Shown: positions 13,436 through 35,891 of the stretch, piece after piece
How positions within the stretch are numbered: the stretch's first letter is position 1
Layout of the letters: the number at the start of each line of letters is the position of its first letter
Position numbers and translations under genes: made by a program
Notes under the pieces: model-generated
Seen by the model: only the letters and a program-made list of their open reading frames with translations
Database searches by the model: none
Told to the model about the DNA's origin: nothing
DNA from: Candidatus Latescibacterota bacterium
Lineage (GTDB): Bacteria; Latescibacterota; UBA2968; UBA8231
Reading direction: 5' to 3'
DNA length: 64,000 nucleotides
NCBI GenBank assembly: GCA_965248265.1
Contig: CBDFJF010000002.1
Span: forward strand, 1,952,001 to 2,016,000

Positions 13436-14287
13436 ATGAAACCGGAAGCCGCAGATCACGTATTGACCGAGCAGGAGCGCGAGCAGTTCGAGCGGGACGG
13501 TTACCTGATCATCGAAGACGCCCTGGAGCCGGATCACGTGCTGCGGTTGAAGGAGGCCGTAGACCGAGTCGCGACCGCGGAGCGGGCTGAACACGAGATT
13601 CCACCGGACAAGCGGGTGAGGGTCAACGACTTCACCTCCCGCGACGAGGCCTTCATGGACCTTGTGGACTGGTACCGGACCTTTCCCAAGGTGTGGGGGG
13701 TCCTGGGTTGGAATATTCAGTTATACGCGGCGACGCTGAAGGTCACACCCGCCAGGAACGAGGTGCAGGAGGGCGGGAAGATGAAGATGGGCTGGCACCA
13801 GGATACCTCGCGCCTGAACATCGAGCTGGAGACCTCACCGCGTCCGCGCATCTCGATGAAGATCGCCTACTTCCTCAGCGACTGCCGTGAGCCGGGACGC
13901 GGGAATCTGTACGTCATTCCGGGAAGTCACGAGATCAATAGCATCGACTTCGGGAACGGCGATCGGAAGAGTGAAGTAGATGGGGGCATTCCGGTGCTGG
14001 TACCCGAAGGCGGCGCCGTGTTGTTCGATCGCCGCCTGTGGCACTCGGCCAGCCGAAACTACGGGAACATGCCGCGCACCGTCCTGTTCTACGGGTACAG
14101 CTATCGCTGGTTTCGGCCCAGGGACGGCCAGTCAGCGGGCCGGTTCTGGGATGGTTTTGATCCGATCCGGCGGCAGTTGTTTGGGGCTTCGACTACCGCG
14201 AAGGGGTATACGTCGCCGACCGCGGAGGATGCGCCGTTGAGGGAGTGGATATGCGAGCATTGCGGGGAAGAAGCGGTTAGGGTGTGA
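13436..14287 (+). CDS. Phytanoyl-CoA dioxygenase (PhyH) family Fe(II)/2OG oxygenase
   Basis: FERDGYL, WHQD, IPGSH, LWHSA..N..R motifs. Confidence 0.92.
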   Translation: MKPEAADHVLTEQEREQFERDGYLIIEDALEPDHVLRLKEAVDRVATAERAEHEIPPDKRVRVNDFTSRDEAFMDLVDWYRTFPKVWGVLGWNIQLYAATLKVTPARNEVQEGGKMKMGWHQDTSRLNIELETSPRPRISMKIAYFLSDCREPGRGNLYVIPGSHEINSIDFGNGDRKSEVDGGIPVLVPEGGAVLFDRRLWHSASRNYGNMPRTVLFYGYSYRWFRPRDGQSAGRFWDGFDPIRRQLFGASTTAKGYTSPTAEDAPLREWICEHCGEEAVRV

Positions 14288-14581
14288 GGCGAAGCTCATT
14301 TACGAGCCGTGAACAGAATCGCCGTTTGCTTTTACCCAACCGAAAGGGAAAGGTGAGACACGGTGTAATTGTGAATCCTTGTCAATCCGTCGTGATCAAA
14401 CCCACGTTATGGTCGCAAAGGGCACACACCCTACAACTGATTCGGGTAACAGCACTTGAGGCGCACCTTGCACGCTGTCGGCACCACTTCGGGCGTGTTG
14501 CTATAACACATCTGCTGTTGCGACCGTACTCGGCTATGACACCTTGGACCAAGCCAGTGCTGAGGGGTGACATACGACTAT

Positions 14582-15199
14582 TCACAATGTGCACCGCCTA
14601 GCGACGATCCATCGAGTCGCCGTCTTCTGATCCCAGACATCTGAGGCGATCACTTCAAAGCCCGAAGCGCTTATGCTGTGCTCCAGCCTGGCTGTCGTGA
14701 GGCCGTGGATTGATGGAGCCAGGCCAACTGTCTGAAGCAGGCCGATCAGCAGTCGGAAGAGCCATCCCCGTTCTCCCAGGCACGGTGTCTGGCTGACCAA
14801 CAGCCCCTGGGGGAGCAGCAGATCCCTCAACCTCTCCAGTGTCGCTTCCACATCCTCCACCAGGTGCAGGACGTTCAGGGCAAGAGCAGCGGAGTAAGTC
14901 TTTCCATTGATCTCACGCACGTCGATGGTGTCAAACTGCATGTTCGCCACTCCGGCTGCCATCGCCTTGTCCCGGGCAAGAGCGATCATTCTGCTCGACG
15001 TGTCGATGGAATGGACCGACTGGACGGTTGTGGCCAGATCCACACTGTACTCACCGCTCCCACACCCGACATCGAGCAGGATGTCTTCATTGCTGAGAAC
15101 TTCTGCCACAGCTCTGATGGTCCGATCGTAGAGGGTGTCGTGATTTCGAATGTCGGCGTCGTACTTGTCCGCCCGGCGATCCCAGAATCTGGCGGTCAT
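14582..15199 (-). CDS. Class I SAM-dependent methyltransferase
   Basis: FWDRRADKY start, LLDVGCGSG motif I, NVLHLV; start overlaps the XRE stop (ATGA). Confidence 0.9.
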   Translation of the reverse strand: MTARFWDRRADKYDADIRNHDTLYDRTIRAVAEVLSNEDILLDVGCGSGEYSVDLATTVQSVHSIDTSSRMIALARDKAMAAGVANMQFDTIDVREINGKTYSAALALNVLHLVEDVEATLERLRDLLLPQGLLVSQTPCLGERGWLFRLLIGLLQTVGLAPSIHGLTTARLEHSISASGFEVIASDVWDQKTATRWIVARRCTL

Positions 15200-15444
15200 G
15201 TCGCGGAACGCCCCCCTTTCGTACGAGCACCGCTCGGGTACCCGAAGACATCGTCCAGGGGAACATCGAATACCTGTGCGATCTGGAAGGCCATCTCGAG
15301 AGAAGGTGAGTATCTCCCTTGTTCGATGGCGATGATGGTCTGCCGGGTTACCCCGACGCGCCTGGCCAGCTCGGCCTGAGTCATGTCGCCACTGGCCTGG
15401 CGCAGTGAGCGGATGTCGTTCGTCACCTTCGTCGGCTTCACCAC
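15196..15444 (-). CDS. XRE-family HTH transcriptional regulator
   Basis: MTQAELARRVGVTRQTIIAIEQGRYSPSLEMAFQIA signature. Confidence 0.93.
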   Translation of the reverse strand: MVKPTKVTNDIRSLRQASGDMTQAELARRVGVTRQTIIAIEQGRYSPSLEMAFQIAQVFDVPLDDVFGYPSGARTKGGRSAT

Positions 15445-15866
15445 GGCGGATGCCCCCGGCGATACGCGTGGATCTTCGCACCAGATCCGACGACGGACGA
15501 CAGGACGAACGCCAGATAGATGGCATTGCCAATCCAGAAGTGATCCGTCTCCATGACAGCCATGACGAGGGCAGCCATGCCTGCCACTATGACGACGAAC
15601 TGCCCGATATACTCACCGAAGTGGCCGATCTCGTGATCGCGTTGATCCACCTCGCCCACATCGTCCCGTACGATCGCGAACACGACTATGTGCGTGACGA
15701 TGGCGAGAATGATCCACGCGGCACACGCCCACAGCATCGCCTCCGCGTATGGGACATCAGTCAGCGGCTCTCCGTCAGCACGACTGAGGATCCGGGTCAG
15801 ATAGCCTGCGTAAACGAGCATTGGGATCAGCAGCATGATCCACGTGCTCTTCTCCTTGTAGGACAT
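15438..15866 (-). CDS. Membrane protein, DUF2178-like partner of the XRE regulator
   Basis: Four TM segments with a DQRD motif; overlaps the XRE start. Confidence 0.75.
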   Translation of the reverse strand: MSYKEKSTWIMLLIPMLVYAGYLTRILSRADGEPLTDVPYAEAMLWACAAWIILAIVTHIVVFAIVRDDVGEVDQRDHEIGHFGEYIGQFVVIVAGMAALVMAVMETDHFWIGNAIYLAFVLSSVVGSGAKIHAYRRGHPPW

Positions 15867-15878
15867 TTCCTTTCTCCC

Positions 15879-15944
15879 ATGTTAAGAATGTTTGACATTC
15901 AAGAAGATAGCTGCCGTGTATCGAATGTCAAGTATTTTTTACAT
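15879..15944. promoter_or_regulatory. Two 20-bp palindromic operators upstream of the membrane protein-XRE-methyltransferase operon
   Basis: ATGTTAAG-AATG-TTTGACAT (15879-15898) and ATGTCAAG-TATT-TTTTACAT (15925-15944); the second contains a minus-strand TTGACA. Confidence 0.7.
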
Positions 15945-15994
15945 GGAGTGGCTGATTCGGGGGATGAAACGGCCTACGGCGACATTTTCAGCTG

Positions 15995-16108
15995 TCACGT
16001 AAATCCAACGATTGCCCACAGGAAGTCTGCGTCAGCGCCGCTGGCTGGACTGGCGGGGAAGTGGAGGAGACCGAGGATGGCCAGGGTGATGGTGGATTTC
16101 GTGTTCAT
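15995..16108 (-). pseudogene. Signal-peptide-only ORF (5' remnant of a secreted-protein gene, or a small protein)
   Basis: GGAG RBS; MNTKSTITLAILGLLHFPASPASGADADFLWAIVGFT*, 37 aa. Confidence 0.4.
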
Positions 16109-16183
16109 GGGCCAGTGCGAACTCCAGATTAAGCGCCGGGTGTTGCCGGTTTCAGGCACGGCATGCGATCCGGCGTGGTTCGA

Positions 16184-16847
16184 TCAAGCGGCCAGACCCT
16201 TCCTGGACAATCTCCCAAGGTAGGTCTCCTCCGACAAGTAGAAATCGAAAAAGACCTGGTTGAAGTCGTCCGGGACGGATGCCTCTGGCAAGCCCGTGCC
16301 CATGATTTCAGTTCGCCACTTTTGAACCCGTGGAAACTCCTGGAGGAAATCGTAGCCGGCACCCTGTCGGATCAGCTCAGTGCGGTAGAGAATCGGCAGC
16401 CACCCGACATCCACGAAGCCAATCTCTGCACCATGGAAGAACGGACTCGAGCCCAGCTCGGTTTCCATGTGCCGGAAAAGGGGTGTGAGGTCGGCGGATC
16501 TCTCGGCCAACGTCTCCGCATCGGGGCTTCGCTGGGTCGAGCACTGGGTCAGGTAGTTGTCCGATGCCAGGTACGCGTGCGCTCGGGTCAGCGCCTTCTG
16601 CGTGGGATTCCCGGACAACAGCCGGCCAACGGAAAGCTCCTCGAGATACTCCATGATGGCGTCTGACTGAAACAGGCCCGCGCCCTCGTCTGTGATCAGC
16701 GCCGGGACTTCGCCTCCATCCGGGGACAGCTTCAACAGCCAATCTGGCCGAGGGTCCGACTCGACGTGCTCTACGACGTAGCGCATCTCTGTTGCCTCCA
16801 GCATGGCGCTGGACGTAGGGACAGATCTTCAGGCTGATGAGTTTCAT
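16184..16847 (-). pseudogene. Glutathione S-transferase family protein, frameshifted after codon 14
   Basis: MKLISLKICPYVQR (CPY motif, RBS AAGGAG) is in a different frame from MLEATEM...LSPDGGEVPAL...FQSDAIMEYLEE. Confidence 0.85.
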
Positions 16848-16937
16848 GCGATCTCCTTCGTCTTGATGTGAGTGACGCTTTCACACATGCAGACGGGGAA
16901 ATCGCAAAAAAGGACGCAACGATCGGGCAGGAAGAAA

Positions 16938-17552
16938 TCAGAGATCGGACCTTACGAAGGTGGTGACATATGTGCCTGTGTCTTCATTGCTCTGAGATTC
17001 TCCATCCACATGATGCCCTGCAACACGAAATCCACATGATACGAATGAGTCTATGTGGTTAGAGGTCAGCACCCATGGAGGACCGTTCTCAAAAGACCTT
17101 TCCTCTCCACTTACTTCGGCAATGACAAGGATCTGACCGCCAGGGGCTACAAAATTGGATAGATTGCGAATCAATTCCTTCTCGTACTTCGGGGGAAGGG
17201 CCTGAATCGTGAATATCTCAAGAACAAAATCAAATCTTCGTTGCCATTGAGGTTGAGCCTCCAGGAGATCGGCTTGTACGAAGTCCACCTTTGATAGAGG
17301 GAAGCGTTCTTTACAGAGTTTTACTGCTGTCTCAGACACATCGAAGGCTGTTACCTGGAATCCAAGAGATTCGAGTTCGATAGCATCGTCGCCCATCCCA
17401 CAGCCTACAACCAGTGCTGATTTGCCGTCACCTTCCAGTGAATGGTGGGTCAACCAATTAGCAAAAGAAGGATGTGTTGCCATGTTTGCCCAGGGAACAC
17501 CCTCACCATTGGCACTTGAACCAGCATATAGTGGCTCAAACCAATCTGAAGG
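16938..17552 (-). pseudogene. Class I SAM methyltransferase (TPMT/TehB-like), 5' truncated or nonsense-interrupted
   Basis: ALVVGCGMGDD, AFDVS motifs; the family-like segment PSDWFEPLYAG...VPWANM lies upstream of the ATG and is preceded by an in-frame TAA with no start codon; AT-richer than the flanks. Confidence 0.7.
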
Positions 17553-17593
17553 TTAGTTTTCCTGAATCCCGAATCGGTCTTGATTCTTGTTTG

Positions 17594-18385
17594 TCAAATT
17601 GTCCTTCGCGTTCGGCCGTAGACGTAGTGGGGGTCCATCGTTATCCCGCAATCCCATTCGACGGTGCCGTTCGCTACTCGCACCGCTGCGAAATCGTCAT
17701 ACGTGGTGATTTCATCGAAAGTGCCCGTTCTCATCCAGGAATTCATGTCGAGGAGGCCTGTTTCACCGGTGTCGAAAGTGACGACGAGCGAATTGTCCTG
17801 CTTTGGAATGACCTCGGTGACCATTGGACTTGCCTCCGATGTCGATAGACCGGATCCCTGATAGGCCTGTCCGACTTTCCAGCCAGCCAGCCTGAGAATT
17901 CGGTAAACGAAGGCTGTTTTTCCTTCGCTGTATGGACCTCTCCCTGATGGGAACTTGCGGATCAACTCCTTCTTGAGCTCCGCATACTCCTTGTGAGCAT
18001 CATGGTTGGCTCTCAGGTAGTCGCGGAACAGAATCTGGCGCACCCAGAATCCGCCGTGGTCCGTGTAGGCGATGGATAAGTGGAACTGGCGAGGGTTGCT
18101 CTTGGTGTAAAAATGACGCTCGGGCAAGCCGGAATGGGTGGCGGGGACGAATTCATACCCAATTTGCTCCAGGGATTCCGTGAATGCGTCGGCATCTTTC
18201 CAGCTCTGAATCATAACCGCGATATCGATAATCGGATTCGAAGGCATTCCTGCAATAGCCGTGCTCCCGATATGCTGGATTTCCAATGCGGCAGCGCCGA
18301 AGATCCCCTGCAAGTGGCGTTCTTCGGCGTTGTAGTCATCAGTCCAATTCGGCTGATAGGGGGTCAGCTGGGCTTGATTCTCCAT
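17594..18385 (-). CDS. GrpB (UPF0157) nucleotidyltransferase-fold protein fused to a C-terminal DUF2442-like domain
   Basis: IQHIGSTAI, PIIDI, FRDYLR, YAELK, YSEGKT (GrpB); then VTEV...LVVTFDTGETGLLDM...F..V.V..GTVEW..G..MDP..Y (DUF2442-like). Confidence 0.85.
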   Translation of the reverse strand: MENQAQLTPYQPNWTDDYNAEERHLQGIFGAAALEIQHIGSTAIAGMPSNPIIDIAVMIQSWKDADAFTESLEQIGYEFVPATHSGLPERHFYTKSNPRQFHLSIAYTDHGGFWVRQILFRDYLRANHDAHKEYAELKKELIRKFPSGRGPYSEGKTAFVYRILRLAGWKVGQAYQGSGLSTSEASPMVTEVIPKQDNSLVVTFDTGETGLLDMNSWMRTGTFDEITTYDDFAAVRVANGTVEWDCGITMDPHYVYGRTRRTI

Positions 18386-18442
18386 TTGAGCCTCACTTTG
18401 GCGTCTCAGTTTGTCGCCTCTCGAATTGTCTCCTCGATGACC

Positions 18443-18923
18443 TCAACGGGAGCCTCTCCACGGTGGCCACATATCGCTGGTCGTCCACTTTTTGAAGCCG
18501 GCGCGTACCAATGCTCCGCCCAGTATGGAACTCGAAAACCAGCAAAGCAGTGCGAAGAAGAGTGCCACCTGTACTGAATACCCTGCGATGCAAACTCCCG
18601 TGAGCCAGACGGCCCACAGGAGGATGATCTCAAACTGGTAGGCCCTGGAGCCTACCCCAATCAGGCGATAGACAACAAGGATGGCCAGGACTGTCAGCAT
18701 GTACATAGGCTTGACAGCGGTACCAATGCTTCCTGTCAATGGGGCAAGGGCGGAGCTCAGGACAGCAAGTGTTACCGCGAGAAGCGTACGCTGCCAGGAC
18801 AGCCACCACGGGAGAGCTGATCTGGGGCAGATCCCACCGCTTGAGTACAAGCGCCGACATCAGTGTGGCAAGCATCGCCATCACCACAAGTGCGGCAGCA
18901 TAGAGGTGAGTTGAAGTCATCAC
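18443..18923 (-). pseudogene. Multi-TM membrane protein with an apparent frameshift near 18790
   Basis: Hydrophobic N-terminus in ORF 18630-18923 continues as hydrophobic segments in ORF 18443-18850, another frame. Confidence 0.5.
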
Positions 18924-18939
18924 AAATGCGACCGACCGG

Positions 18940-18975
18940 CGACCATCGGGAGCGAACTGCAGCGCCTCGTTATGT
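18940..18975 (-). mobile_element. Truncated attC (left half only)
   Basis: Minus strand ACATAAC-GAGGC-GCTGCAGT, with the cassette gene's TAA stop inside R''; no matching L'/R' arm follows. Confidence 0.6.
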
Positions 18976-19293
18976 AAACATCAATTTTGATTTGACATCA
19001 CCACCGGCTAACTCACCATTCACATAGATGTGACAACCTGTGAGTATTCCAGGCCATTTGCTACCCAGCCTAACCAATATGTCGTACGACTTACCATCTT
19101 TTTCAACGAAGGCCTTATGTTCGCTTCCCATATTTTCCTTAAATCCATCTTCTACATCTTTTCTAACAGAGCTAAGAACCTGGCCATCTACCCATAATGT
19201 CTCCTCAGACGGCATACTAAGAGTATGTTTCCATCTATTTTCGAATTCGATGTGAATCTCTCCATTATCGTACTTCCATAGTTTTCCAGGCAT
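18970..19293 (-). CDS. Hypothetical protein, integron cassette gene
   Basis: 107 aa, visibly AT-rich, AAGGAGG RBS just after the attC GTT; stop codon lies in the next R''. Confidence 0.8.
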   Translation of the reverse strand: MPGKLWKYDNGEIHIEFENRWKHTLSMPSEETLWVDGQVLSSVRKDVEDGFKENMGSEHKAFVEKDGKSYDILVRLGSKWPGILTGCHIYVNGELAGGDVKSKLMFT

Positions 19294-19317
19294 TCAACCT
19301 CCTTAGCTGGTAGTTAA

Positions 19318-19438
19318 ATAAAACGCAGTGTTCAGCAGCGGACAGAGCCGCCGCTCGACACCTGAATCACGATTCGCTCAGCTGACGCACCGCCCCCCTT
19401 GATTCACTCTCAAACAGCCCGCTGAACACATGTTAGCG
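19318..19438 (-). mobile_element. attC-like recombination site (121 bp)
   Basis: Minus strand CGCTAAC-ATGT-GTTCAGC...GCTGAAC-ACTGC-GTTTTAT; complementary L boxes; no clear extra-helical base. Confidence 0.75.
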
Positions 19439-19610
19439 ACATGTAGATTCGCGTACGTTGCGACCGATGCGTATCCTTACGCAGATGGCGCTCCAGGGCG
19501 CCTCCTGTCCGCGGAAAGGGCCGGGCCCACCTGATTGTAGTGCCACGTCAAGTTATAGGACCTTCTTGGTCTGTGCGAGCGGACCCAGGCAACCTCGAGG
19601 AGGTCTCGCC

Positions 19611-20921
19611 ATGTCCGTCATTGAGTTCCCCTTCCGTTTCAGTTTCGAACAAGCCCGCAAACAGGCGAAGGATCTGCAGCGGGACCTGAGGGCCGGTGTC
19701 CCAACTGCGATGGACAGGCTCCGCGCCGTCCATCCAGATGGCGAGCGCACGGCGCCCACAAGACTCTCCGATGCACAACTGGTCATTGCCCGTGAGCACG
19801 GATTCGAGTCGTGGGTGCGGATGAAGAGGTACGCGCAGCCCGAGACAATGTACCAGAACGAGATGATCACCGAAGGCATGAACGAGGTCATCAATGGTCC
19901 TTGGGAAGATCAGTTGGTGATGCTGAACGACTTGGCTTCCGAGGCACTACGTCACTGTGGGATAGAGCCGTCTCGGATGAGCAGAGCCGGCCACATGGGG
20001 AACTTCGGCTTCTCTGACTACGCACTGGCGGTAGTCACTGACGGTTCATCGCCTTCGTATCTGGTCACAGTCCACTACACATATGACGACGTGTTTTCCT
20101 TCGATGAGATGCACAGGCAAGTTGCTTCACTCTGTGCTTGGCTCCACGCGCTGGATCGCGACACCGAACTCGACATCCAAGCCCCTGTACCTGATAGGAC
20201 TGGTGCGCTGTGTCAGCGCATCGACCACAGACCAGACGGCCCAGCAGCAGTATGCACAGTGCAACACTGGGTCAAGGGCCGCGATATCGTGGGCCCGGAG
20301 TGGGATGGCAGAGTCATCAAGCCCGGCGGCTGCTACGGAATAGAGTCCGACGCCGTGCGCAAGATGGGAGTCGTCCTCGCCACGATTCACACACATGGCA
20401 GGACGTGGCCTCGCCCTGATGGATTCAACCGGTTACAGACAGACTGGGTCGAAGACTTGTCCGAGCCCGAAATGAAGTACTGGGATACTGGCAAGCGAGA
20501 TCCAGAAGAAGCACGCATAGTCCGCACAGCCATGGAAGAGGTAGCTCGTTATCGAAAGGACCAAGGCGAACCATGGGGCCTGACGCATGGTGACTACCGC
20601 GTGCCCAATATCGTCGTCGATGGAAGTGAGTACAAGCCTATCGATTTTGACTTCTCGACCTTGAGCCACCAATTCGACGATGTCGGCTTCTTCCTGATTG
20701 ACATGCCTGAGCCGAGGTTGCGAGACGCGTTTCTCAACGGATATGAGTCCGTTTCGCCACAAGCAGCGAGCTTCCAGCGTCTCGTTGAGGGAACGATAAT
20801 CGCAGGGCGGGTCCGTCGTTGTGCCTGGGACTGGGGAGAGCATTTCCCAGAACGTCTCGTGCCGGAAAGTATCAGCTACCTAGCAGGCGAATCGTTCCTC
20901 CTGAGGCCATACTGTCGCTAA
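19611..20921 (+). CDS. APH/type II homoserine kinase-like phosphotransferase with an N-terminal helical leader domain (cassette gene, antisense to the array)
   Basis: THGDYRVPNI (Brenner motif) and IDFD; N-terminal FEQARKQAKDL...LSDAQLVIAREHGFESW leader; GAGGAGG RBS. Confidence 0.85.
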   Translation: MSVIEFPFRFSFEQARKQAKDLQRDLRAGVPTAMDRLRAVHPDGERTAPTRLSDAQLVIAREHGFESWVRMKRYAQPETMYQNEMITEGMNEVINGPWEDQLVMLNDLASEALRHCGIEPSRMSRAGHMGNFGFSDYALAVVTDGSSPSYLVTVHYTYDDVFSFDEMHRQVASLCAWLHALDRDTELDIQAPVPDRTGALCQRIDHRPDGPAAVCTVQHWVKGRDIVGPEWDGRVIKPGGCYGIESDAVRKMGVVLATIHTHGRTWPRPDGFNRLQTDWVEDLSEPEMKYWDTGKRDPEEARIVRTAMEEVARYRKDQGEPWGLTHGDYRVPNIVVDGSEYKPIDFDFSTLSHQFDDVGFFLIDMPEPRLRDAFLNGYESVSPQAASFQRLVEGTIIAGRVRRCAWDWGEHFPERLVPESISYLAGESFLLRPYCR

Positions 20922-21038
20922 CGAAGAGTTCAGCGGGTTGGAGAAACCGTTGAGCCGCGGCAACACTAGACAACGCGGTGCATCGGCAATCGCAATGCGA
21001 ATTCGTAATCGAGACGTCCGCTGAAACTCATGTTATCG
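20916..21038 (-). mobile_element. attC recombination site (123 bp)
   Basis: Minus strand CGATAAC-ATGA-GTTTCAGCGG...CCGCTGAAC-TCTTC-GTTAGCG; one extra T in L''; begins about 20 bp after the APH stop. Confidence 0.85.
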
Positions 21039-21057
21039 CTTGGTCGCTCTCCGTTCG

Positions 21058-22017
21058 CTACCGTTCGCAATTGTCACCGAGTATCTCCCTGCCGTATCGA
21101 AAGCCCTTCCGCTCTTCGTCCGGATAGCAAAGGCAGCGCAACACGATGGTCTTGAAGTGAGTCAACGATCGCTTCTTCAGGTCTGAGTCAGATCTCGGAT
21201 AGTGCTTGAGCGTGGAGTCAACGAATTGCTCGCCGTAGGACCAGAAGCCATAGAAGTCCTTAGCCGGATCCATGATGCTGACATCTCCCCAGTCGATGAT
21301 GCCCGTCAAGCGTCCGACGGCGGCGTCATGGTAAACGTGCTTGTGCCACATGTCGTCGTGAATGAACATCGCGTCGTAGGGCCGCTGCCGGACTTCGATC
21401 TCCGGAAGCCAGCGCTCGCAAACGGACCGCAGATCCGGAGGGATCACATCTGCTCGTCGCTCAAACCACTCAACCAAAGCTTTAGGCTCATTTGGGTGAA
21501 GTGGGGTCTCCTCCTCAACTCCCAAGGCTGTTGCCCGGCTGACGGGAAAAGAGTGGACCGCACCGAGGAATTCCCCTAGCTCTCGTGCCAGATCTGCTCG
21601 CCTCGCCTGCGAGATTCTGCGGAAACGCCATGGAGATAGCCGAGTGCCTCTCACCGCTTTGTATCCTGCGAAGTCGAGTGAGTCTGGGATGTAGGTGTAG
21701 GTCGGGATCGCTGTGGCGAAAAAACCCTGGATTGCATCCAACACCGCTCTCTCCCGAAGATGCTTCGCGATGTCCTCTATCTCGTTTCCTCTGACAAAGC
21801 GAAACACCAAACCGTTGTCAAGGAGGAACATGACGTGGTCTGAGCCATCCTGGACTCTCCTGTATTTCTTCCACGAGAGCTCTGGAAATGCATCCCTGAT
21901 ACGGCCAAGGAAGGTCTCCGAAGCGATTGCATCTCCGATCTCTGGTCTCCACGTCGATTTTTCAAGAGTCTCCGCCAGCGATGACCTGATTTGCTCGCCA
22001 TATACTTCAACACTCAC
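21058..22017 (-). CDS. Aminoglycoside phosphotransferase (APH) family protein, cassette gene
   Basis: LVFRF, IHDDMWHKHV (variant Brenner motif), GIIDWGD, DPAKDF. Confidence 0.85.
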   Translation of the reverse strand: MSVEVYGEQIRSSLAETLEKSTWRPEIGDAIASETFLGRIRDAFPELSWKKYRRVQDGSDHVMFLLDNGLVFRFVRGNEIEDIAKHLRERAVLDAIQGFFATAIPTYTYIPDSLDFAGYKAVRGTRLSPWRFRRISQARRADLARELGEFLGAVHSFPVSRATALGVEEETPLHPNEPKALVEWFERRADVIPPDLRSVCERWLPEIEVRQRPYDAMFIHDDMWHKHVYHDAAVGRLTGIIDWGDVSIMDPAKDFYGFWSYGEQFVDSTLKHYPRSDSDLKKRSLTHFKTIVLRCLCYPDEERKGFRYGREILGDNCER

Positions 22018-22091
22018 TGAGAATACTCCGTGCAGTTGCTCGCTACTATGACTGTGGGTGTGCGGTACTTCGATGGCCTACGGCCCGGTCA

Positions 22092-22209
22092 CGATAACGC
22101 AGGGATGACCTGCGAGGAATCACCGCTCGCCTCCGGTCCCCTGCCATAGCCAAACGTAAGCCCCAGTCCGTGAACCCCGTCAATAGGTCAGGTCCATCCC
22201 ATGTTATGC
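22092..22209 (-). mobile_element. attC recombination site (118 bp)
   Basis: Minus strand GCATAAC-ATGG-GATGGACCTG...CAGGTCATC-CCTGC-GTTATCG; extra G in L''; its GTTATCG is the exact complement of the next site's CGATAAC. Confidence 0.85.
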
Positions 22210-22487
22210 AGGACCGATGAGTTCTCAGGCTGGCAACGCCCGTTGCCAACCGAGGAACAGAGCCTCTGAGCGCCCAGTTCTCCCTCCCTTCGCGACGACC
22301 GCTCAAGTGGAGGGCCCATGTCCCCAGGCCTAGATCTGGGCACTGGCTCGCAGGCTGCGGGGCTCTAACTTATGGCCTGTGCGTGGCGCTGGTGTGGGCC
22401 GTTCGGTCCGACACCACCACGATTCAAGTCCGTCGCACCGCCTCGACCCCTGTGACGATCCTCGGACTCACTACGAAGGAGCTGCTC

Positions 22488-23651
22488 ATGTCCATCGCAG
22501 GCATCGCTGTGATCGTATCCCTGCTCGGGATCATCTCGGCTCGCCAGTCGAGCTCCACCGAACCGGAGCCCCCATCCCAGGCGCGCGTGCGCCTGGCCAC
22601 GCCCGAACAGCTGGCGGCCCTGCAGCTGGCTATGTCGAACAGAGAGCAAACAATGTCGCAGAGCGGACGCCGTGTCCTGCTGGACCACGAGCCAGGGGGT
22701 GGCGGCATCTCCGGCTGCCTGGCTCCCGCCCTGCGGACCGTCGGCATCGACTGGTCGACGGAGCGATATCAGGGCTTCCTGGGATTCTCCTACGACTTCA
22801 GCATGACAGAGGAAGGCGGCTTTTTCTGGCAAGGCACCGCGCTGCAGTGGAGCATCTTCTGGCCCATGCTGGACCATCTGCCGGTCAAGAGAATCGAGGC
22901 AACGCTGAAAGGCCCGAACGACACGCCTGAAAAGCACCAGGCCGCCAAGCGGCGCGGTTGGGACGCTGTGCGCGAGGAGCTCGACGCCGGCCGTCTGGCT
23001 ATCGTGTGGTCGCCGATGACAGCCGAACAGCGTTGGGCCGAAGAGCCACAAGGGCCTCTGCCCTGGATGTGGAGCCTCATCGTCGGCTACGACGACGACG
23101 CCGGTACCATCACGGTGCGTCACGACCACGCCGGCGAGTCCACGATCCGCTTTGATGAGCTGGGTCACGCCGACCCGTCCGGCTACTTCTGCGTAATGAT
23201 CCTGGATGCACCCGCCGAGCCCATGGACGAGTTGGCCGCGAACCGCCAGTCGCTACAGCTCGCCCTGGCGGCGTCTCGGGGGAAGTACCCGGGTTCACAG
23301 GAACCTGCCACCCATGGCCTGGCAGCGTACGAGGTGTGGCGCGCCGCGCTGCAGGCAGGCACCGGAGCGGAACAGCACGTCCCCTACCACGCCACCTACC
23401 TGACCCACAGGCGCGAAGAGGCGACGCGTTATCTGGCTCAGGTTGAGCACGTCTTCCCCGAGGCGGCACGGTCTCACGTACGCGCAGCGGCACAGCACTA
23501 CCGCGCAGAGGTCGACGCCATGAAGAAACTGCGGGAGATGTTCGAGGGTGGCGCTGCCGACCAGAAAGAGGGAGCAGCTCTGGTCAACAAAGCGCTTGAG
23601 CACGAACGTGCAGCGCTTGCCGAGATCCAGCGGGCTCTTGATGCCTCGTAG
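22488..23651 (+). CDS. Exported hypothetical protein, possibly BtrH-N/papain-like (cassette gene, antisense to the array)
   Basis: AAGGAG RBS, hydrophobic N-terminus, GCLAPALR...GFSYDF and WSLIVGYDD segments. Confidence 0.7.
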   Translation: MSIAGIAVIVSLLGIISARQSSSTEPEPPSQARVRLATPEQLAALQLAMSNREQTMSQSGRRVLLDHEPGGGGISGCLAPALRTVGIDWSTERYQGFLGFSYDFSMTEEGGFFWQGTALQWSIFWPMLDHLPVKRIEATLKGPNDTPEKHQAAKRRGWDAVREELDAGRLAIVWSPMTAEQRWAEEPQGPLPWMWSLIVGYDDDAGTITVRHDHAGESTIRFDELGHADPSGYFCVMILDAPAEPMDELAANRQSLQLALAASRGKYPGSQEPATHGLAAYEVWRAALQAGTGAEQHVPYHATYLTHRREEATRYLAQVEHVFPEAARSHVRAAAQHYRAEVDAMKKLREMFEGGAADQKEGAALVNKALEHERAALAEIQRALDAS

Positions 23652-23675
23652 AGCTACTGCCTCCGTCAACCAATG

Positions 23676-23694
23676 CCATAACAATTCATTATGC
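23676..23694 (-). mobile_element. attI-like integron attachment site
   Basis: Minus strand GCATAAT-GAATT-GTTATGG, the 7-5-7 layout of attI1 (CCCTAAA-ACAAA-GTTRRRY); GTTATGG matches 6/7 the complement of R'' GCATAAC of the first attC. Confidence 0.7.
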
Positions 23695-23989
23695 GCCACG
23701 ACGCATTTGCCGGCCAATCACCTCGTTTAGAGCCTTTGCACCCAAACGGGCAATCTTTTCAACTATTGGCCCCGCAGCCTTAACTCCTTCCAGCACAATG
23801 ACCATCGCGCACCACCCCAAAGTATAGCGGTTCGCATATCCGAGTATTCTCGGGCATTCCGTGACGGGCGCATACACGGCGATCCCAATAATCGGGACGC
23901 GTTTGGCCTGTATTACCTGGATATGTGGCGGGACAGATAACAAAGTATCCTCGCCACGCCCCCCTCCGTACTTCTACGGAGTACTGCAG

Positions 23990-24029
23990 AAACAGAAAAC
24001 GCCCGGACCATGTTCTGCGGTCTCGGGCG
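23990..24029 (-). terminator. Putative intrinsic terminator
   Basis: Minus strand CGCCCG(A)GACC-loop-GGTCCGGGCG followed by TTTTCTGTTT. Confidence 0.6.
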
Positions 24030-24070
24030 ATTGTTCATGCGTCGACTCCTGTTCAACAGTGAAGCGAAAG

Positions 24071-24261
24071 GCGTTACAGCGTACTCATCTTGCGGATCTC
24101 AACTCGCTGCTGCGGCCTGGAGCCTGTAGGGGAAGATTGTAGCCCATCTGCTTGGGTGAATCAACCCGCAAAGCCAGCACAGGCGGCTCAAGCAATCGCG
24201 GCGCCTTCCAGCGGTGTGGCCGCCGAGCTGGCAATCTGCTCGTGGTATCCTCCTCGCCCAG
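24071..24261. repeat. Diverged direct copy of 33704-33898 (oxidoreductase 3' end plus downstream promoter/leader)
   Basis: Shared blocks gcgttacagc, gctgctgcggcctggagcctgta, gattgtagcc, gcttgggtg; encodes remnant YHEQIASSAATPLEGAAIA* versus YHEQITTSAAKPLGGAAVS*. Confidence 0.88.
24136..24164 (-). promoter_or_regulatory. Sigma70-type promoter
   Basis: TTGATT-N17-TACAAT; the second copy at 33772-33800 reads TTGGTG-N17-TACAAT. Confidence 0.6.
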
Positions 24262-24370
24262 CTTGCCCTGGGCTTTGCCGCGGGCGCAAGCCTTGTTATT
24301 GCGGTCTGGGCCATGGTTTCGTAGCCTGCTTTCGGCAGATTAGAGTCGTCACGAACGGCCAGCGAGTGAT

Positions 24371-25128
24371 ATGGCGAGAATGAAGAGACGTGGTGCCCTC
24401 AGCCTTCTACTACTGTGTGGGATGGCTGCAGCCGAGCCTGGCGACAGTCCACCCACTATCCTGTTCTTCGGGGACAGCTTGACGGCGGGCTACGGCGTCG
24501 AGAAGACGCAGGCCTATCCGGCCCTGATTCAGGGTCGCATCGATTCGCTCGGTTGGGACTTCCGCGTGGTCAACGCCGGATTGGACGGCGAGACTACCGC
24601 TGCGGGTCTGCGGCGCTTAGACTGGATCCTGCGGCGACCGGTGGATGTGTTCGTACTCGAGCTGGGGGGCAACGACGGGTTGCGGGGGTTGCCGTTGGCG
24701 CAGACGGAGACGAACCTGCAGCAGATCCTCGATCGCGTCCTGAAGAAGAGTGCCGACACCGAGCTGGTGATAGCCGGGATGCAGCTGCCCCCCAATCTGG
24801 GCCCCGACTACACGTCACAGTTCCGCGCCATCTTCCCACGCCTTGCGACACGCAACAAAGCCGCTCTGATCCCATTCCTGCTGGAGGGTGTAGGGGGGTG
24901 GACGGGCTCATGCTGCCCGACGGCATCCACCCCAACCCGGCGGGACACCGACGCGTTGCTGACGTCGTGTGGGCGGCGCTGGAACCGGTGCTGCAGCGTC
25001 TTCGTGCCACCAGCGCTGACTCACTCGGCGCGGCGCAGGACCTCGAGGGGCGGCGCGGCCTGGATGCCGCGGCTGCTGGTGAGTCCGACCAGCACGGTGA
25101 TGAGGGGGATGGCGACACCGGCCAGTAG
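24371..25128 (+). CDS. tesA: Arylesterase/acyl-CoA thioesterase I (SGNH/GDSL), frameshifted in a G6 run at 24893-24898
   Basis: GDSLTAGYG, NAGLDGETT and ELGGNDGLRG are in one frame; the catalytic DGIHPN is in another; one extra G restores EGVGGVDGLMLPDGIHPN. Confidence 0.85.
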
Positions 25129-27567
25129 CAACGCCGGCCACGACGGGGCGAAGGTGATCTCGAACACGAACCGCGCAAGGGCCCAGCCGCCACCGAGCGC
25201 CAGCAGCAACCCGGCAAGTCCGGCGAGACTTCCCAGCAGCAGGTATTCCACCAGCAGAATGCGTCCCACCTGACGTCGGCTGGCGCCCAGAGTCCGCAGC
25301 AGGGCGCTCTCGCGCAGGCGCTGGAAACGACTGCCGGCGATCACGGCGACGAGGACGCACAGGCCGGTGCCCACACTGAACACGGATACCAGGCGCACGA
25401 CGACGGACACCTTGTCGAGCACCTGGTCCACTGTCCGCAGCACGAGATCGAGGTCGATGACGGAGACGTTCGGGAACTGACGCACCGTCCGTCGCTGCAA
25501 CGCGGCCCGTGTCTGGCCGTCGTCGGCACGGGTGACCAGAACATGAAACTGCGGGGCCTGCTCGAGCGCCCCTGCCGGGAAGACGACGAGGAAATTGGGC
25601 ATGATGCGTTGCCAGTCGACGGTGCGCAGGCTGCCGACGACGACGTCGATGGGCACACCCTCGACATCGAAAACCAGAGAATCCCCGATGCCGACGTCGA
25701 GGGCAGCAGCCACACCGACTTCCAATGATACTAACACCGTGTCCGCGACCACGCCGCGCCACTGGCCTTCGGCGATCTGCTCGGTTTCCGTCGTATGGTC
25801 GCGATAAGTGGAGCGGTACTGGCGTCGCAGGGCCCAGCTTCCTCGACGCTTCTTTCCGATAATGTCATCGACAGCAACGCCCTTCACCCGGGCCACGCGC
25901 ATCGGTACGACCGGTACCTGCTGGATGACCGGCATATTCATACTAGCCACCAGTTCGGCGACCGCTTCACTCTGATCAACCTGGATGTCGAACAGGACCA
26001 TATTGGGCTGGTCGCCCCCGCTGACGCTGTTGATGTGAGCGATGATGGAGCTCTGCGCCGTGTAGAGGGTGATGACGAGGAACGTTCCCAGGCCGAGGCT
26101 GACGAGCAGCAGGAGCGTCTGGTTGTGTGGCCGGTAGAGATTGGCCAGCCCCTGACGCCACAGATAGCTCCATCCGGTCGGGAAGAAACGCCGCGCGCCG
26201 GCACGCAGCAGCCGGGCGGCGCCGGTGAGCAGGCACATGGCCAGCAGCGTGCCGCCGGTGAAGTAGAAGGCATGGTCGGACCGGCCGGTGAGGACGTGGG
26301 CCAGCAGGTAGGTCCCTCCGCCGGCGAGCAGGGCCAGCAGCACGCGCAGGAGGAGATCACCGCGGTGCGTGCCGCTCTCGTAATCAGCGCGCAGCGCCAG
26401 CAGCGGTGAGACGCGGCGCACGGCCAGCAACGGCAGGGAGGCGAACAGCAGAGAGATGGCCGCGCCCACTCCCACGCCTTCGACGACCGACAGGGGTGAC
26501 AGCACGGCCTGCACGTCCCCGAGTTGTTGTGGCAGGAAGTCGGCGAGCAACCCGGGCAGCCACCAGACGAAGCTGAGCCCCGCGAGGGCGCCGGCAAGCG
26601 AACCGCTGACCCCCATGGCAGCGGCCTGGACCAGGTAGATGAGCAGGGTCTGGCGCGCGATGGCGCCGAGGCTGCGCAGGATGGCGACGGTCTCCAGCTT
26701 CTGCTGTACGTGAGCATGCACGGCGCTGGCCACGCCCACGGCACCCAGGAGTAGGGCAACGAAGCTGCCGAGGCCGAGGAAGCGGTAGAGGTTGCCCAGC
26801 GTCCGGCCGAGGCGGCGCTTGCGGTCGGCGATGGTGTCGGCGTCAGCACCCAGGCTATCGAGACGGGCGTCCAGCGATGAGGCCAGCTCATCGACGTCAC
26901 GGCCGTCCTCGAACTGGAAATACACCTTGTATTCGACAATGCTGCCGGCCTGGATCAGGCGCGTCTGTTCGATGGTGCGATAGGGAATGAAGACGACGGG
27001 CCTCACGTCAGTGCGCAGCGCGGTCTCTCCAGGCAGGTGCAGCAGACGTCCACCGATGCGGACATCTAATTGCCCGACGCGCAGGGTGTCGCCGACCTGG
27101 GCGCCGAACTGTAGCATCAGGCCATCATCGACGAGCGCCTCGCCGTCTTGCGACCAGGTGCGTGCCGCGGCCGCCGGGTCCGTGCCAAGCTCGCCGTAGA
27201 AGGGGAAGCCGCCTTCGAGTGCACGCACCTGAGCGAGCCTGGTACCACCGCTGGCCGGGAAGGCGATCATGGAAAGGAGCTCCACCATGCGCGCCTGCCG
27301 GCCAGCGAGCGAATCGATGAGTGCCAGCGTTTCCGCCTTGAAGGGCTCGCGGCTCTCGATCTCCATGTCGGCCCCCAGCAGGGTCGCGGCATGCTCGTCG
27401 ACAGCGTGTTCCATCGTCCGCGACAGTCCGCGCAGGCCGGTGAGGGCGGCGATGCCGACGGCGATGGCACTGGTGTAGAGCAACAGCCGCCACCGCCGCC
27501 CGCGGCTGTCGCGCCAGGCCATGCGCAGGGGCCATGGTATCAGGGCCGGCATCAGGGCACGCGGCAT
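25021..27567 (-). CDS. ybbP: ABC transporter permease, YbbP/FtsX-like
   Basis: MAWRDSR start, two FtsX-like TM domains, AILRSLGA and LLRTLGA motifs; linked to a YbbA-like ATPase and TesA. Confidence 0.9.
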   Translation of the reverse strand: MPRALMPALIPWPLRMAWRDSRGRRWRLLLYTSAIAVGIAALTGLRGLSRTMEHAVDEHAATLLGADMEIESREPFKAETLALIDSLAGRQARMVELLSMIAFPASGGTRLAQVRALEGGFPFYGELGTDPAAAARTWSQDGEALVDDGLMLQFGAQVGDTLRVGQLDVRIGGRLLHLPGETALRTDVRPVVFIPYRTIEQTRLIQAGSIVEYKVYFQFEDGRDVDELASSLDARLDSLGADADTIADRKRRLGRTLGNLYRFLGLGSFVALLLGAVGVASAVHAHVQQKLETVAILRSLGAIARQTLLIYLVQAAAMGVSGSLAGALAGLSFVWWLPGLLADFLPQQLGDVQAVLSPLSVVEGVGVGAAISLLFASLPLLAVRRVSPLLALRADYESGTHRGDLLLRVLLALLAGGGTYLLAHVLTGRSDHAFYFTGGTLLAMCLLTGAARLLRAGARRFFPTGWSYLWRQGLANLYRPHNQTLLLLVSLGLGTFLVITLYTAQSSIIAHINSVSGGDQPNMVLFDIQVDQSEAVAELVASMNMPVIQQVPVVPMRVARVKGVAVDDIIGKKRRGSWALRRQYRSTYRDHTTETEQIAEGQWRGVVADTVLVSLEVGVAAALDVGIGDSLVFDVEGVPIDVVVGSLRTVDWQRIMPNFLVVFPAGALEQAPQFHVLVTRADDGQTRAALQRRTVRQFPNVSVIDLDLVLRTVDQVLDKVSVVVRLVSVFSVGTGLCVLVAVIAGSRFQRLRESALLRTLGASRRQVGRILLVEYLLLGSLAGLAGLLLALGGGWALARFVFEITFAPSWPALLLAGVAIPLITVLVGLTSSRGIQAAPPLEVLRRAE

Positions 27568-27584
27568 CAGGACTGGGTGTCCTC
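27497..27584. repeat. Direct repeat, left copy (ATPase-end/permease-start junction)
   Basis: 88 bp matching 28294-28396; contains the functional permease start preceded by a copy of the ATPase C-terminus (EDTQS*). Confidence 0.9.
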
Positions 27585-28293: not shown

Positions 28294-28396
28294 CGCCCAC
28301 GGCTGTCGCGCCAGGCCATGCGCAGGGACCATGGTATCAGGGCCGGCATCAGGACCCCCGGCATCAGGACCGATGGCATCAGGACTGTGTGTCCTC
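28294..28396. repeat. Direct repeat, right copy (true ATPase end plus abortive permease start)
   Basis: 103 bp; one extra 15-bp GGCATCAGG-N6 unit relative to the left copy; encodes MPSVLMPGVLMPALIPWSLRMAWRDSRGR then diverges. Confidence 0.9.
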
Positions 28397-33681: not shown

Positions 33682-33703
33682 GTTGTGATCTGCATGCAGA
33701 AAT

Positions 33704-33898
33704 GCGTTACAGCATACTCATCAGGCTTGAATCTCAAGCCGCTGCTGCGGCCTGGAGCCTGTAAGGGGAGGATTGTAGCCAATTTGCTTGGGTGCACCAA
33801 TCCGCATAGCCGGCACGGACGGCTCAAGAAACCGCAGCCCCTCCCAGCGGCTTGGCCGCCGAGGTCGTGATCTGTTCGTGGTACTCCTCCTCGCCCAG
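33704..33898. repeat. Direct repeat partner of 24071-24261
   Basis: Contains the real 3' end of the oxidoreductase gene plus the shared promoter/leader. Confidence 0.88.
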
Positions 33899-34930
33899 GA
33901 CCTCTTTCTTGTTTCTTAACCGGGCCGGCTTGGGGACGATCTTCAGGCTGCGGTCGGCGATGGGGAACTTCACCGGGGTGTGGTCGTTGCGGTGTGATTC
34001 GCGCAGGCCGATGGCGATTTCGAGGACCTTGCGCATGTTGGCGCCGCTGCAGCGGGGCTCGATGTCCTGATCCAGCGACTCGACGAGGGACTGGATGCCG
34101 GCGCGCTGGCGGGTGCCGCTGGGGTTGATCCAATCCGCCCGGTCGCCGAAATCGTCGAAGAAGCTCTCATCCTCGACCAGCTTGCCTTGAGCCTTGCCGC
34201 GCCACAGGTGACCGCTGGAGAAGTCGGTATAGTAGACGCCTTCGGTGCAGAGGAGTTCGACGCCCCTGAGGAGGACGGGGTGTCGGTGAATGAAACCGTC
34301 GATGCCGTTGGTGAAGCGGACCAGACCGCCCATGTTCTGGTCGTTGTCGCTGGCCGGATCGTCGCACCAGCCGGTGACCCAGTCGACGTCGGCGTCGCCG
34401 GCGAACAGGCGCAGGACGCTCAGTCCCTGGCAGCCGCCGCCGGAAATCTCATTGGTGGGCATGTAGAGGTTGATGCTGCGGACCTCGCCGATCTCTCCCG
34501 AGCCGATGAGGCGTCTGACCTTCCAGTGCTGGGGCATGTTGCGGAAAGCGTCGCCGGCGGCCAGATGAATACCACGGGAGGCGCACTCCTCGACCATCTG
34601 GTCTGCTTCTTCGAGACTGACAGCCATCGGTTTCTCACAATAGATGGCTTTGATCCCCGGTGCTCGGGCGCAGTCGATGACGACCTGGGAGTTGGGACCC
34701 ACTGGCAGGATGGGCGCGACGATGTCGAGCTCTTCGGCGGCCAGCATCTCGTGGTAGTCGGCATATCCCTTTACCGGGAAGCGTTCCAGGAAGATGTCGA
34801 GATTGCCGGGGTCGGGATCGGCGGCGGCCACGACCTCGGTGCGGGGATTGCCCTGGTAGCCGCGCGCGTGCCCGTGGCCCTTGCGGCCGACGCCGATCAT
34901 GCCGGCGCGGTAGATTGGTTGTGTCGTCAT
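33824..34930 (-). CDS. Gfo/Idh/MocA family oxidoreductase
   Basis: GMIGVGRKG, CEKPMA; start placed at MTTQPIY; paralogous to 44352-45500. Confidence 0.9.
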   Translation of the reverse strand: MTTQPIYRAGMIGVGRKGHGHARGYQGNPRTEVVAAADPDPGNLDIFLERFPVKGYADYHEMLAAEELDIVAPILPVGPNSQVVIDCARAPGIKAIYCEKPMAVSLEEADQMVEECASRGIHLAAGDAFRNMPQHWKVRRLIGSGEIGEVRSINLYMPTNEISGGGCQGLSVLRLFAGDADVDWVTGWCDDPASDNDQNMGGLVRFTNGIDGFIHRHPVLLRGVELLCTEGVYYTDFSSGHLWRGKAQGKLVEDESFFDDFGDRADWINPSGTRQRAGIQSLVESLDQDIEPRCSGANMRKVLEIAIGLRESHRNDHTPVKFPIADRSLKIVPKPARLRNKKEVLGEEEYHEQITTSAAKPLGGAAVS

Positions 34931-35138
34931 GATGAGATACGATAGCTCGATGCGCTGCTCGTCGCCAGCAGCGCCATCCGAGTGATCAGCGTGCATCCCG
35001 CAGCAAAGTCGACCTCGCCTCAGTTGCCCCAACGGAGGTAGCTCGATACACTTCGAGCTGCTCCATCTCAGCGTGGTCGAGTTGCGTGTTCCAGCATTCG
35101 ACAACCGGACAACCTTTCGATCGCAGGCGGCGCGAATC

Positions 35139-35891
35139 ATGCCAGACAACCCAGCAACCGGTTTCGCCATCGCCTTCGGACGCTCCTTGCTGGGCGCCGG
35201 CCGCGACCTGCTTCCCATCGTCCTGGTCATCGCCGTGTTCCAGGTAGTCGTCGTAGACCAGTCCCTACCCGGAACAGCGTCCATCCTGGTGGGCTTGGTG
35301 CTGGTGGTGGTGGGCCTATCCCTCTTTGTGATGGGGCTGGACATCGGTCTGTTCCCGCTCGGTGAGGCATTAGCTGAAGAGTTCGCCCGCAAGGGGAGCC
35401 TGGCATGGCTGCTGGTGTTCGCCTTTGCGCTGGGGGCCGGCACTACGGTGGCCGAGCCGGCGCTGATCGCCGTGGCCCGGGAAGGGGCCGTGGCGGCGGC
35501 TGAGGCCGGAGTCATCGACGACACGCCCGACGCCATCGCCCGTTACGCTCTGGGTGTCCGGCTGAGCGTGGCCCTTTCCGTGGGTGTGGCCATCGTGCTC
35601 GGCGTGTTGCGCATCCTGCGCGGCTGGTCCCTGCCCGTGATGATCGTCTCCGGCTACGTACTGGTCATGCTCATGACGCTGGCCGCGCCGGCCGAGATTG
35701 TCGGGTTGGCCTACGACTCTGGCGGGGTCACTACATCCACGGTCACCGTGCCGCTGGTCACCGCGCTCGGGGTGGGACTGGCGCGCACGATTCACGGCCG
35801 TGATCCGGTCATGGACGGCTTCGGGCTGATCGCTCTGGCGTCGCTCACGCCGATGATCTCGGTCATGCTCTTCGGTTTGGTGATGAGCTAG
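35139..35891 (+). CDS. DUF1538 membrane protein
   Basis: [33 protein letters not shown] motifs. Confidence 0.9.

Follow-up and report, generated by a model that had tools for sequence, protein, structure and literature searches.

Is the run of genes and imperfect palindromes that occupies the minus strand in one part of a Candidatus Latescibacterota genome an integron, and if so, where is its integrase? The stretch analyzed here, 64,000 nucleotides of contig CBDFJF010000002.1 (GenBank assembly: GCA_965248265.1; positions 1,952,001–2,016,000, hereinafter the window), had been given a preliminary description from its letters alone, which proposed an integron platform with an attI and cassettes and no integrase. 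This core claim withstood our searches, which recovered an attC family tied to complete integrons, a flank homologous to a known attI and no IntI in the assembly (7.32 Mb in two contigs, C1 and C2, with the window on C2; genome G000 of our set). From these sequence comparisons we consider it highly likely that the segment 14305–23740 (minus strand) is a chromosomal integron minus its integrase gene and that it is decaying; we read it as a genuine gene-cassette array in which the attI is kept and intI is gone. The element extends over ~14.3–23.7 kb of the window (~9.4 kb) and reads from the attI (crossover GTT at 23682) through three cassettes, each with an intact attC of ~120 nt, and then through ~4.9 kb lacking attC sites to a degenerate attC. 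[quoted passage not shown] The element is an unremarkable representative of a kind already known, in a host from a little-studied phylum.

The attC sites and their family

An arm-pairing scan for AAC...GTT on the minus strand of 13500–24500 returned exactly the three palindromes of ~120 nt singled out in the preliminary description (attC1–3, Table 1), at a score of 18 against 0.17 per shuffle (at a score of at least 16, three observed against 0.4 per shuffle). Read on the minus strand, each site starts with ...TAAC and ends with GTT..., the AAC of R'' and the GTT of R' being present in all three, and their mean column identity is 69%; in attC1 and attC2 the 5' arm is one base longer than the 3' arm. 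As had been predicted, the bottom (plus) strands, when cut at their exact ends, fold at minimum free energy (MFE) into R/L-box hairpins, with an R stem, a small asymmetric internal loop, an L stem that has a bulged base on the 3' arm of the plus strand, and a variable head (–13.0, –23.6, and –14.8 kcal/mol for attC1–3, values that carry no shuffle control). With flanks added, the canonical fold is obtained in attC2 only and the z-scores are weak (–0.3 to –1.9). An Rfam search of the window gave no match.

The covariance model R1, built from these three sites alone, detected eight further sites at four other loci of the same genome and had matches in nine of 60 relatives. In the relative G031, 11 such sites (30–63 bits; contig C7, locus L062) lie in a row adjoining and divergent from an IntI of 350 bits (TIGR02249, cut-off 265), and in G008 four sites flank an IntI of 351.7 bits, both integrases possessing the IntI-specific insertion. 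Under the stricter filters used to survey the relatives, this attC type was present in all four genomes with an IntI of 350–367 bits and in none of the five with an IntI of ~460 bits, a co-occurrence of site type and IntI clade. The IntI in question, at ~416 aa, is a long form whose N-terminus is extended by ~100 residues (L062 15209–16456 in G031; L063 in G008); relatives of it, 41–60% identical over nearly the full length, are found in metagenome-assembled genomes labelled with many phyla. The attC type itself is ~125 nt long, is also conserved in its central part and recurs across several genera of one bacterial family; against a profile made without the window's sites, attC1 scores 33.9 bits in its 5' arm and 30.0 bits in its 3' arm. 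In contigs from four runs of one sample, which may be the source of the window, the stretch is identical and has no joint at any attC; such contigs drop rare variants and their coverage is therefore uninformative on excision. Other contigs of that sample contain near-identical 37-nt matches to the 3' arm of attC1, so the site family is present in that community.

Both the stems and the ends of the sites behave as a family. In an alignment of 37 distinct sites that was fitted to the model, 94.8% of the L helix is paired and seven of its 11 pairs vary on both sides, as against 24–44% paired when the partners are slid by one to three columns; the AAC/GTT pairs are kept in 35–37 of these sites. 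An independent MAFFT alignment of 18 bottom strands, folded with RNAalifold, recovered the helix along with two single unpaired bases on the '' arm. At the ends, the six nucleotides past the GTT and the six before the next AAC agree in adjacent sites at a mean of 4.53/6 (n=15 pairs), compared with 2.52/6 for non-adjacent pairs (n=427) and 2.6/6 for the two ends of the same site (four sites without a clear AAC or GTT left out), which is therefore as expected of once-circular cassettes. The three end complementarities reported previously for the window can all be read as strings; as evidence for junctions, the two internal ones (Table 1) are sound, scoring 4 and 6 of 6, whereas the 6/7 between attI and attC1 amounts to 3/6 in our count, which 48% of unrelated pairs attain. 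Upstream of the other arrays, heptamers at the heads of cassettes do not exceed chance (the fifth locus left out). Because the R1 family adjoins integron integrases in related genera, its stems covary and its ends obey the junction rule, the three palindromes are, by their sequence, identified as true attC sites.

attI and the absence of an integrase

The template for an attI was provided by G031, where the first cassette boundary can be set independently at a GTT heptamer on the strand opposite intI, 293 nt upstream of it, that complements R'' of the first attC exactly. In the window, the 7-5-7 string that had been put forward as an attI is located at 23694–23676, and the 33 nt before the GTT at 23682 match the attI flank of G031 at 23/33 positions in the same register. 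This ranks first among the 181,870 GTT sites on both strands of the genome (next best 20; mean 8.1, sd 2.4 for its 4,024 GTTAT sites). An end-anchored 60-nt alignment to G031 likewise scores 15 as against 3.4 ± 1.8 in 200 shuffles (maximum 8.5), 6 sd above, and the homology fades between 60 and 120 nt from the crossover, to be gone by 200 nt. A 19/33 match is found in G045 ~290 nt upstream of its own intI, while G008 and G033 show 17/33; with the window flank as query, the top or tied-top site in the latter two is on the strand opposite intI, ~325 nt upstream of it. The claim of an attI is upheld by this homology, by which the window site appears to be an attI homologous to a bona fide one.

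The same comparison speaks to another origin, in which the cassettes were never part of a resident integron and an integrase acting in trans inserted them at a secondary site (attC × attG), the 'attI' being no more than a genomic target. That this attC family occurs at five scattered loci of a genome without IntI, two of the loci being single sites, would sit well with such an origin, as would the chance-level 6/7 head complementarity. Loot et al. report that insertion at GWT sites is efficient and propose it as the origin of small CALINs and single sites (bioRxiv 10.1101/2022.09.11.507474), and according to Cury et al. 95% of CALINs are without a nearby intI pseudogene (PMC4889954). However, homology to an attI is not expected of a random GWT target, and genome-wide the G031 attI flank is matched best by the 33 nt that precede the crossover, with no attI-like flank at any of the other four attC loci; we accordingly hold this origin to be improbable.

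Profile searches and tblastn detected neither an integron integrase nor a remnant of one on either contig. The best match to TIGR02249 in the genome scores 239.6 bits, which is below the cut-off of 265, is in two pieces that skip the IntI-specific profile positions 178–232, and belongs to a 301-aa tyrosine recombinase on the other contig (L001 1183–2088; C1:1754240–1755151) that scores 207 bits on a XerA-type model. With the IntI of G031 and G008 as queries, tblastn retrieved general tyrosine recombinases only, none of them near any attC locus and nothing on C2 within 1.2 Mb. As previously noted, there is no open reading frame (ORF) for a tyrosine recombinase next to attI; a blastn comparison of 23600–24400 with the IntI loci gave no intI remnant, and BLASTP of the ORF at 23861–24142, where intI would start, gave no similarity to IntI. 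The attI is separated from a conserved GDSL-lipase gene by only ~690 nt, which hold an unassigned 84-aa ORF and, as the preliminary description had recognized, a duplicated chromosomal fragment at the position of intI (Table 1). The fragment corresponds, with a 1-nt deletion, to the last ~75 nt of a 570-aa oxidoreductase gene of the GFO_IDH_MocA type (33824–35536, minus strand), 9.6 kb away, and ~125 nt downstream of it.

Decay, history and comparison with known elements

The array reaches ~4.6 kb beyond the end assigned to it before, to a degenerate terminal attC that was found with an nhmmer profile built from 39 sites (E = 9.2e-12 locally and 1.1e-8 genome-wide; the score with R1 is just 7.2 bits). 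This relic keeps R'', L'' and the central region (profile positions 5–111 of 130), has lost its L'/R' end and lies at the edge of a region of atypical G+C. Between 14.4 and 19.3 kb, no further attC was detected by R1 with filters off, by the arm scan or by nhmmer --max. A half site at 18940–18975 that had been thought to close a fourth cassette was rejected: it scores –10.1 bits against the family's 5'-arm profile (a value equalled or exceeded at 0.39% of positions in the genome), agrees with the preceding junction at 2/6 and is not found by nhmmer with filters off. A candidate at 17562–17492 was also discarded, having an arm-scan score of 12, at which five are expected by chance. The run of small genes in this interval comprises a split membrane-protein frame, GrpB-DUF2442, a methyltransferase, a GST, a membrane protein, an XRE regulator, and a second methyltransferase; two of them appear frameshifted, namely the GST (16184–16847, with the first ~14 codons in another frame) and a membrane protein (18443–18923, split over two frames), and look like pseudogenes. 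The ~4.9 kb without attC would then be the eroded distal part of the array.

The preliminary description had left it between a lost intI and service in trans; the evidence supports the loss, while service in trans is left with no resident candidate. A version of the latter would place the cognate intI in genomic sequence missing from the assembly or on a replicon left unbinned, with the window array as a second docking platform. The two-contig assembly, with an estimated completeness of 92%, has room for this, attC1–3 look intact and fold canonically, and the near-identical matches to attC1 come from the same sample; but no IntI occurs in 7.32 Mb, the apparent pseudogenes and the truncated terminal attC point to decay, and a gene-fragment duplication sits where intI is expected, so that we think it unlikely that the integron is still served. 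That the palindromes are ordinary intergenic hairpins (terminators or REP-like repeats) resembling attC sites by chance is scarcely credible, since, for all the weak z-scores with flanks and the lack of an Rfam match, the same family occurs in arrays adjoining true IntI genes in two other genera, its stems show compensatory changes, the junction rule holds, and terminator-like sites are no more numerous than in shuffles (3 against 3.2).

For the integron that has lost its integrase gene, we propose a history in which the cassettes would have been inserted at attI by an integrase of the long-form IntI clade (attI × attC, with the bottom strand folded), after which intI would have been removed by a deletion or rearrangement leaving the gene-fragment duplication beside attI. 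Without an integrase the array would have become static, with its distal part eroding.

Several observations weigh against this history or blunt it. Among the sites, attC3 is atypical, with an L'' that lacks the extra base and an L' that has extra bases, and the terminal relic is without a canonical fold; the ~4.9 kb without attC may have an origin other than cassette erosion. For the attI homology, one relative, G031, carries most of the weight, and a search of the metagenome contigs with a degenerate attI motif gave a single match that is the same sequence as in G031 and hence not independent. As the homology fades 60–120 nt from the crossover, it gives no end-point for the deletion; the incompleteness of the assembly leaves room for an unassembled intI; and the nearest genomes belong to other genera, with flank proteins at most 68% identical, so that cassette turnover at the locus is not observable.

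According to Cury et al. (PMC4889954), half of the CALINs are in genomes that have no IntI, one origin proposed for CALINs is the loss of intI, attC similarity is particularly low in them, and IntegronFinder annotates attI for classes 1–3 only. Like the CALINs treated there, the window array has two or more attC sites in the space of a few kb, lacks an intI for 10 kb around, lies in a genome without IntI, has no nearby intI pseudogene, is small, and contains genes mostly of unknown or unlisted function; unlike them, it has an attI recognizable by homology to the complete integron of a sister genus, and its three attC sites are alike. With the insertions at attG sites and the single attC sites lacking integron-integrases (SALINs) of Loot et al. 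(bioRxiv 10.1101/2022.09.11.507474) the genome shares integrase-less single sites and small arrays scattered along it, but the window array begins at an attI homologue rather than at just any GWT. The complete integron of G031 agrees with the window in attC family, attI flank, polarity (the array reads away from attI) and junction rule; it differs in having a 416-aa IntI, 293 nt from attI on the opposite strand, and in lacking GDSL lipase or FtsX permease neighbors, and the two have no cassette gene in common.

Sedentary chromosomal integrons have attC repeats that are homogeneous and specific to a lineage, those of Vibrio cholerae being an example. The present system resembles them in its one long (~125 nt) attC type with a conserved center across several genera; unlike them, it has short arrays (2–4 sites per array in this genome, 11 in G031), and the platform in the window is dead. 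No integron study of Candidatus Latescibacterota was found in the literature, as judged by titles and the opening lines of abstracts. The locus thus adds a well-delimited example from a candidate phylum, in which an array without an integrase has an attI recognizable from its homology, one IntI clade is accompanied by a lineage-specific attC type and, as we read the array, the distal end erodes once the integrase is gone; current views of integrons are unchanged by it. More speculatively, and with the odds rather against it, the bacterial family (Candidatus Latescibacterota) may have an integron system of its own, with a ~416-aa IntI clade, a ~125-nt attC with a conserved center and a recognizable attI, whose IntI-less members trade cassettes via community integrases in trans. 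If this were true, 'dead' platforms such as that of the window, in a genome with five attC loci, would remain live docking sites.

Cassette genes and surroundings

Table 1. Predicted features of the window array and further sites of its attC family in the same genome (window coordinates unless a contig is given).
Feature	Position	Strand	Remarks
attI (putative)	23678..23740	-	Probable crossover GTT 23682-23680; ~40-60 nt upstream homologous to G031 attI
Cassette 1 gene, 422 aa	22383..23651	+	Inverted relative to the array; rare unnamed family; weak sub-threshold BtrH_N match
attC1	22088-22213, core 22092-22209	-	Model R1; canonical MFE fold
Cassette 2 gene, 319-aa APH-family kinase	21058..22017	-	Pfam PF01636, 66.6 bits
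attC2	20912-21042, core 20916-21038	-	R'' against attC1 R' 7/7; model R1; canonical MFE fold
Cassette 3 gene, 487 aa	19458..20921	+	Inverted; C-terminal APH-type kinase domain, PF01636 44.9 bits, residues 297-431
attC3	19314-19442, core 19318-19438	-	R'' against attC2 R' 10/10; model R1; canonical MFE fold
107-aa ORF	18970..19293	-	G+C 0.46-0.49; directly after attC3; without own attC or family match
Run of small genes without attC	14582..18923	-	Atypical G+C, 0.47-0.63
Degenerate terminal attC (putative)	14305-14413	-	nhmmer 36.1 bits; abuts convergent chromosomal gene 13436-14287(+)
Duplicated fragment	24066-24262		blastn 83.5% over 200 nt to window 33699-33898
Four-site array	C2:29137-34203 (locus L018 7138-12204)	-	R1; without IntI or attI-like flank
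Two-site array	C1:2927433-2928862		R1; site at C1:2927433 ends in GTA, not GTT
Single attC sites	C2:3891407-3891535; C2:1155949-1156079		R1

The cassette genes had been described as four, all on the minus strand; the first and the third are in fact on the plus strand. The 422-aa protein of cassette 1 belongs to a family of eight proteins at E≤1e-5, itself included, none of which is named, and a 33% identical homologue of it adjoins an attC in G039. The 319-aa kinase of cassette 2 is distantly like APH(2'') and Mph enzymes (best NCBIfam score 51 bits against a cut-off of 600). With its two APH-family kinases of predicted function, the locus is a small sample of the environmental cassette pool. 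PADLOC gave no defense-system match for the cassette genes and, for the distal genes, only generic methyltransferase and HTH matches.

Elsewhere in the genome, the cassettes of the four-site array code for an APH-family kinase, a GNAT acetyltransferase, a PhyH dioxygenase and unknown proteins, with an XRE regulator and a NUDIX gene upstream; its APH-like gene and those of the window array are not close paralogues. The two single attC sites may be secondary-site insertions.

Next to the window array, a block of GDPD, ABC ATPase, FtsX and GDSL genes is conserved in all three relatives examined (G015, G012, and G007), beside which nothing from 10.5–24.3 kb of the window is present; as these relatives belong to other genera, the insertion is neither dated nor delimited by synteny. 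A sigma-70-like match at 23717–23688 (minus strand), a candidate for the Pc promoter of the array, is one of two in total against 2.1 expected in shuffles, and the sigma-70 type may not be that of the host. On the scale of the assembly, cumulative GC skew declines over C1 up to ~2.94 Mb and climbs over C2 up to ~3.46 Mb, a pattern that a single chromosome with one contig for each arm would give; if the contigs are such arms, the bottom strands of the window attC sites would lie on the lagging-strand template. Finally, a 77-nt direct repeat, 94% identical between its copies (27497–27573 and 28294–28370), is found where the FtsX permease gene and a neighboring frame have their 5' ends.

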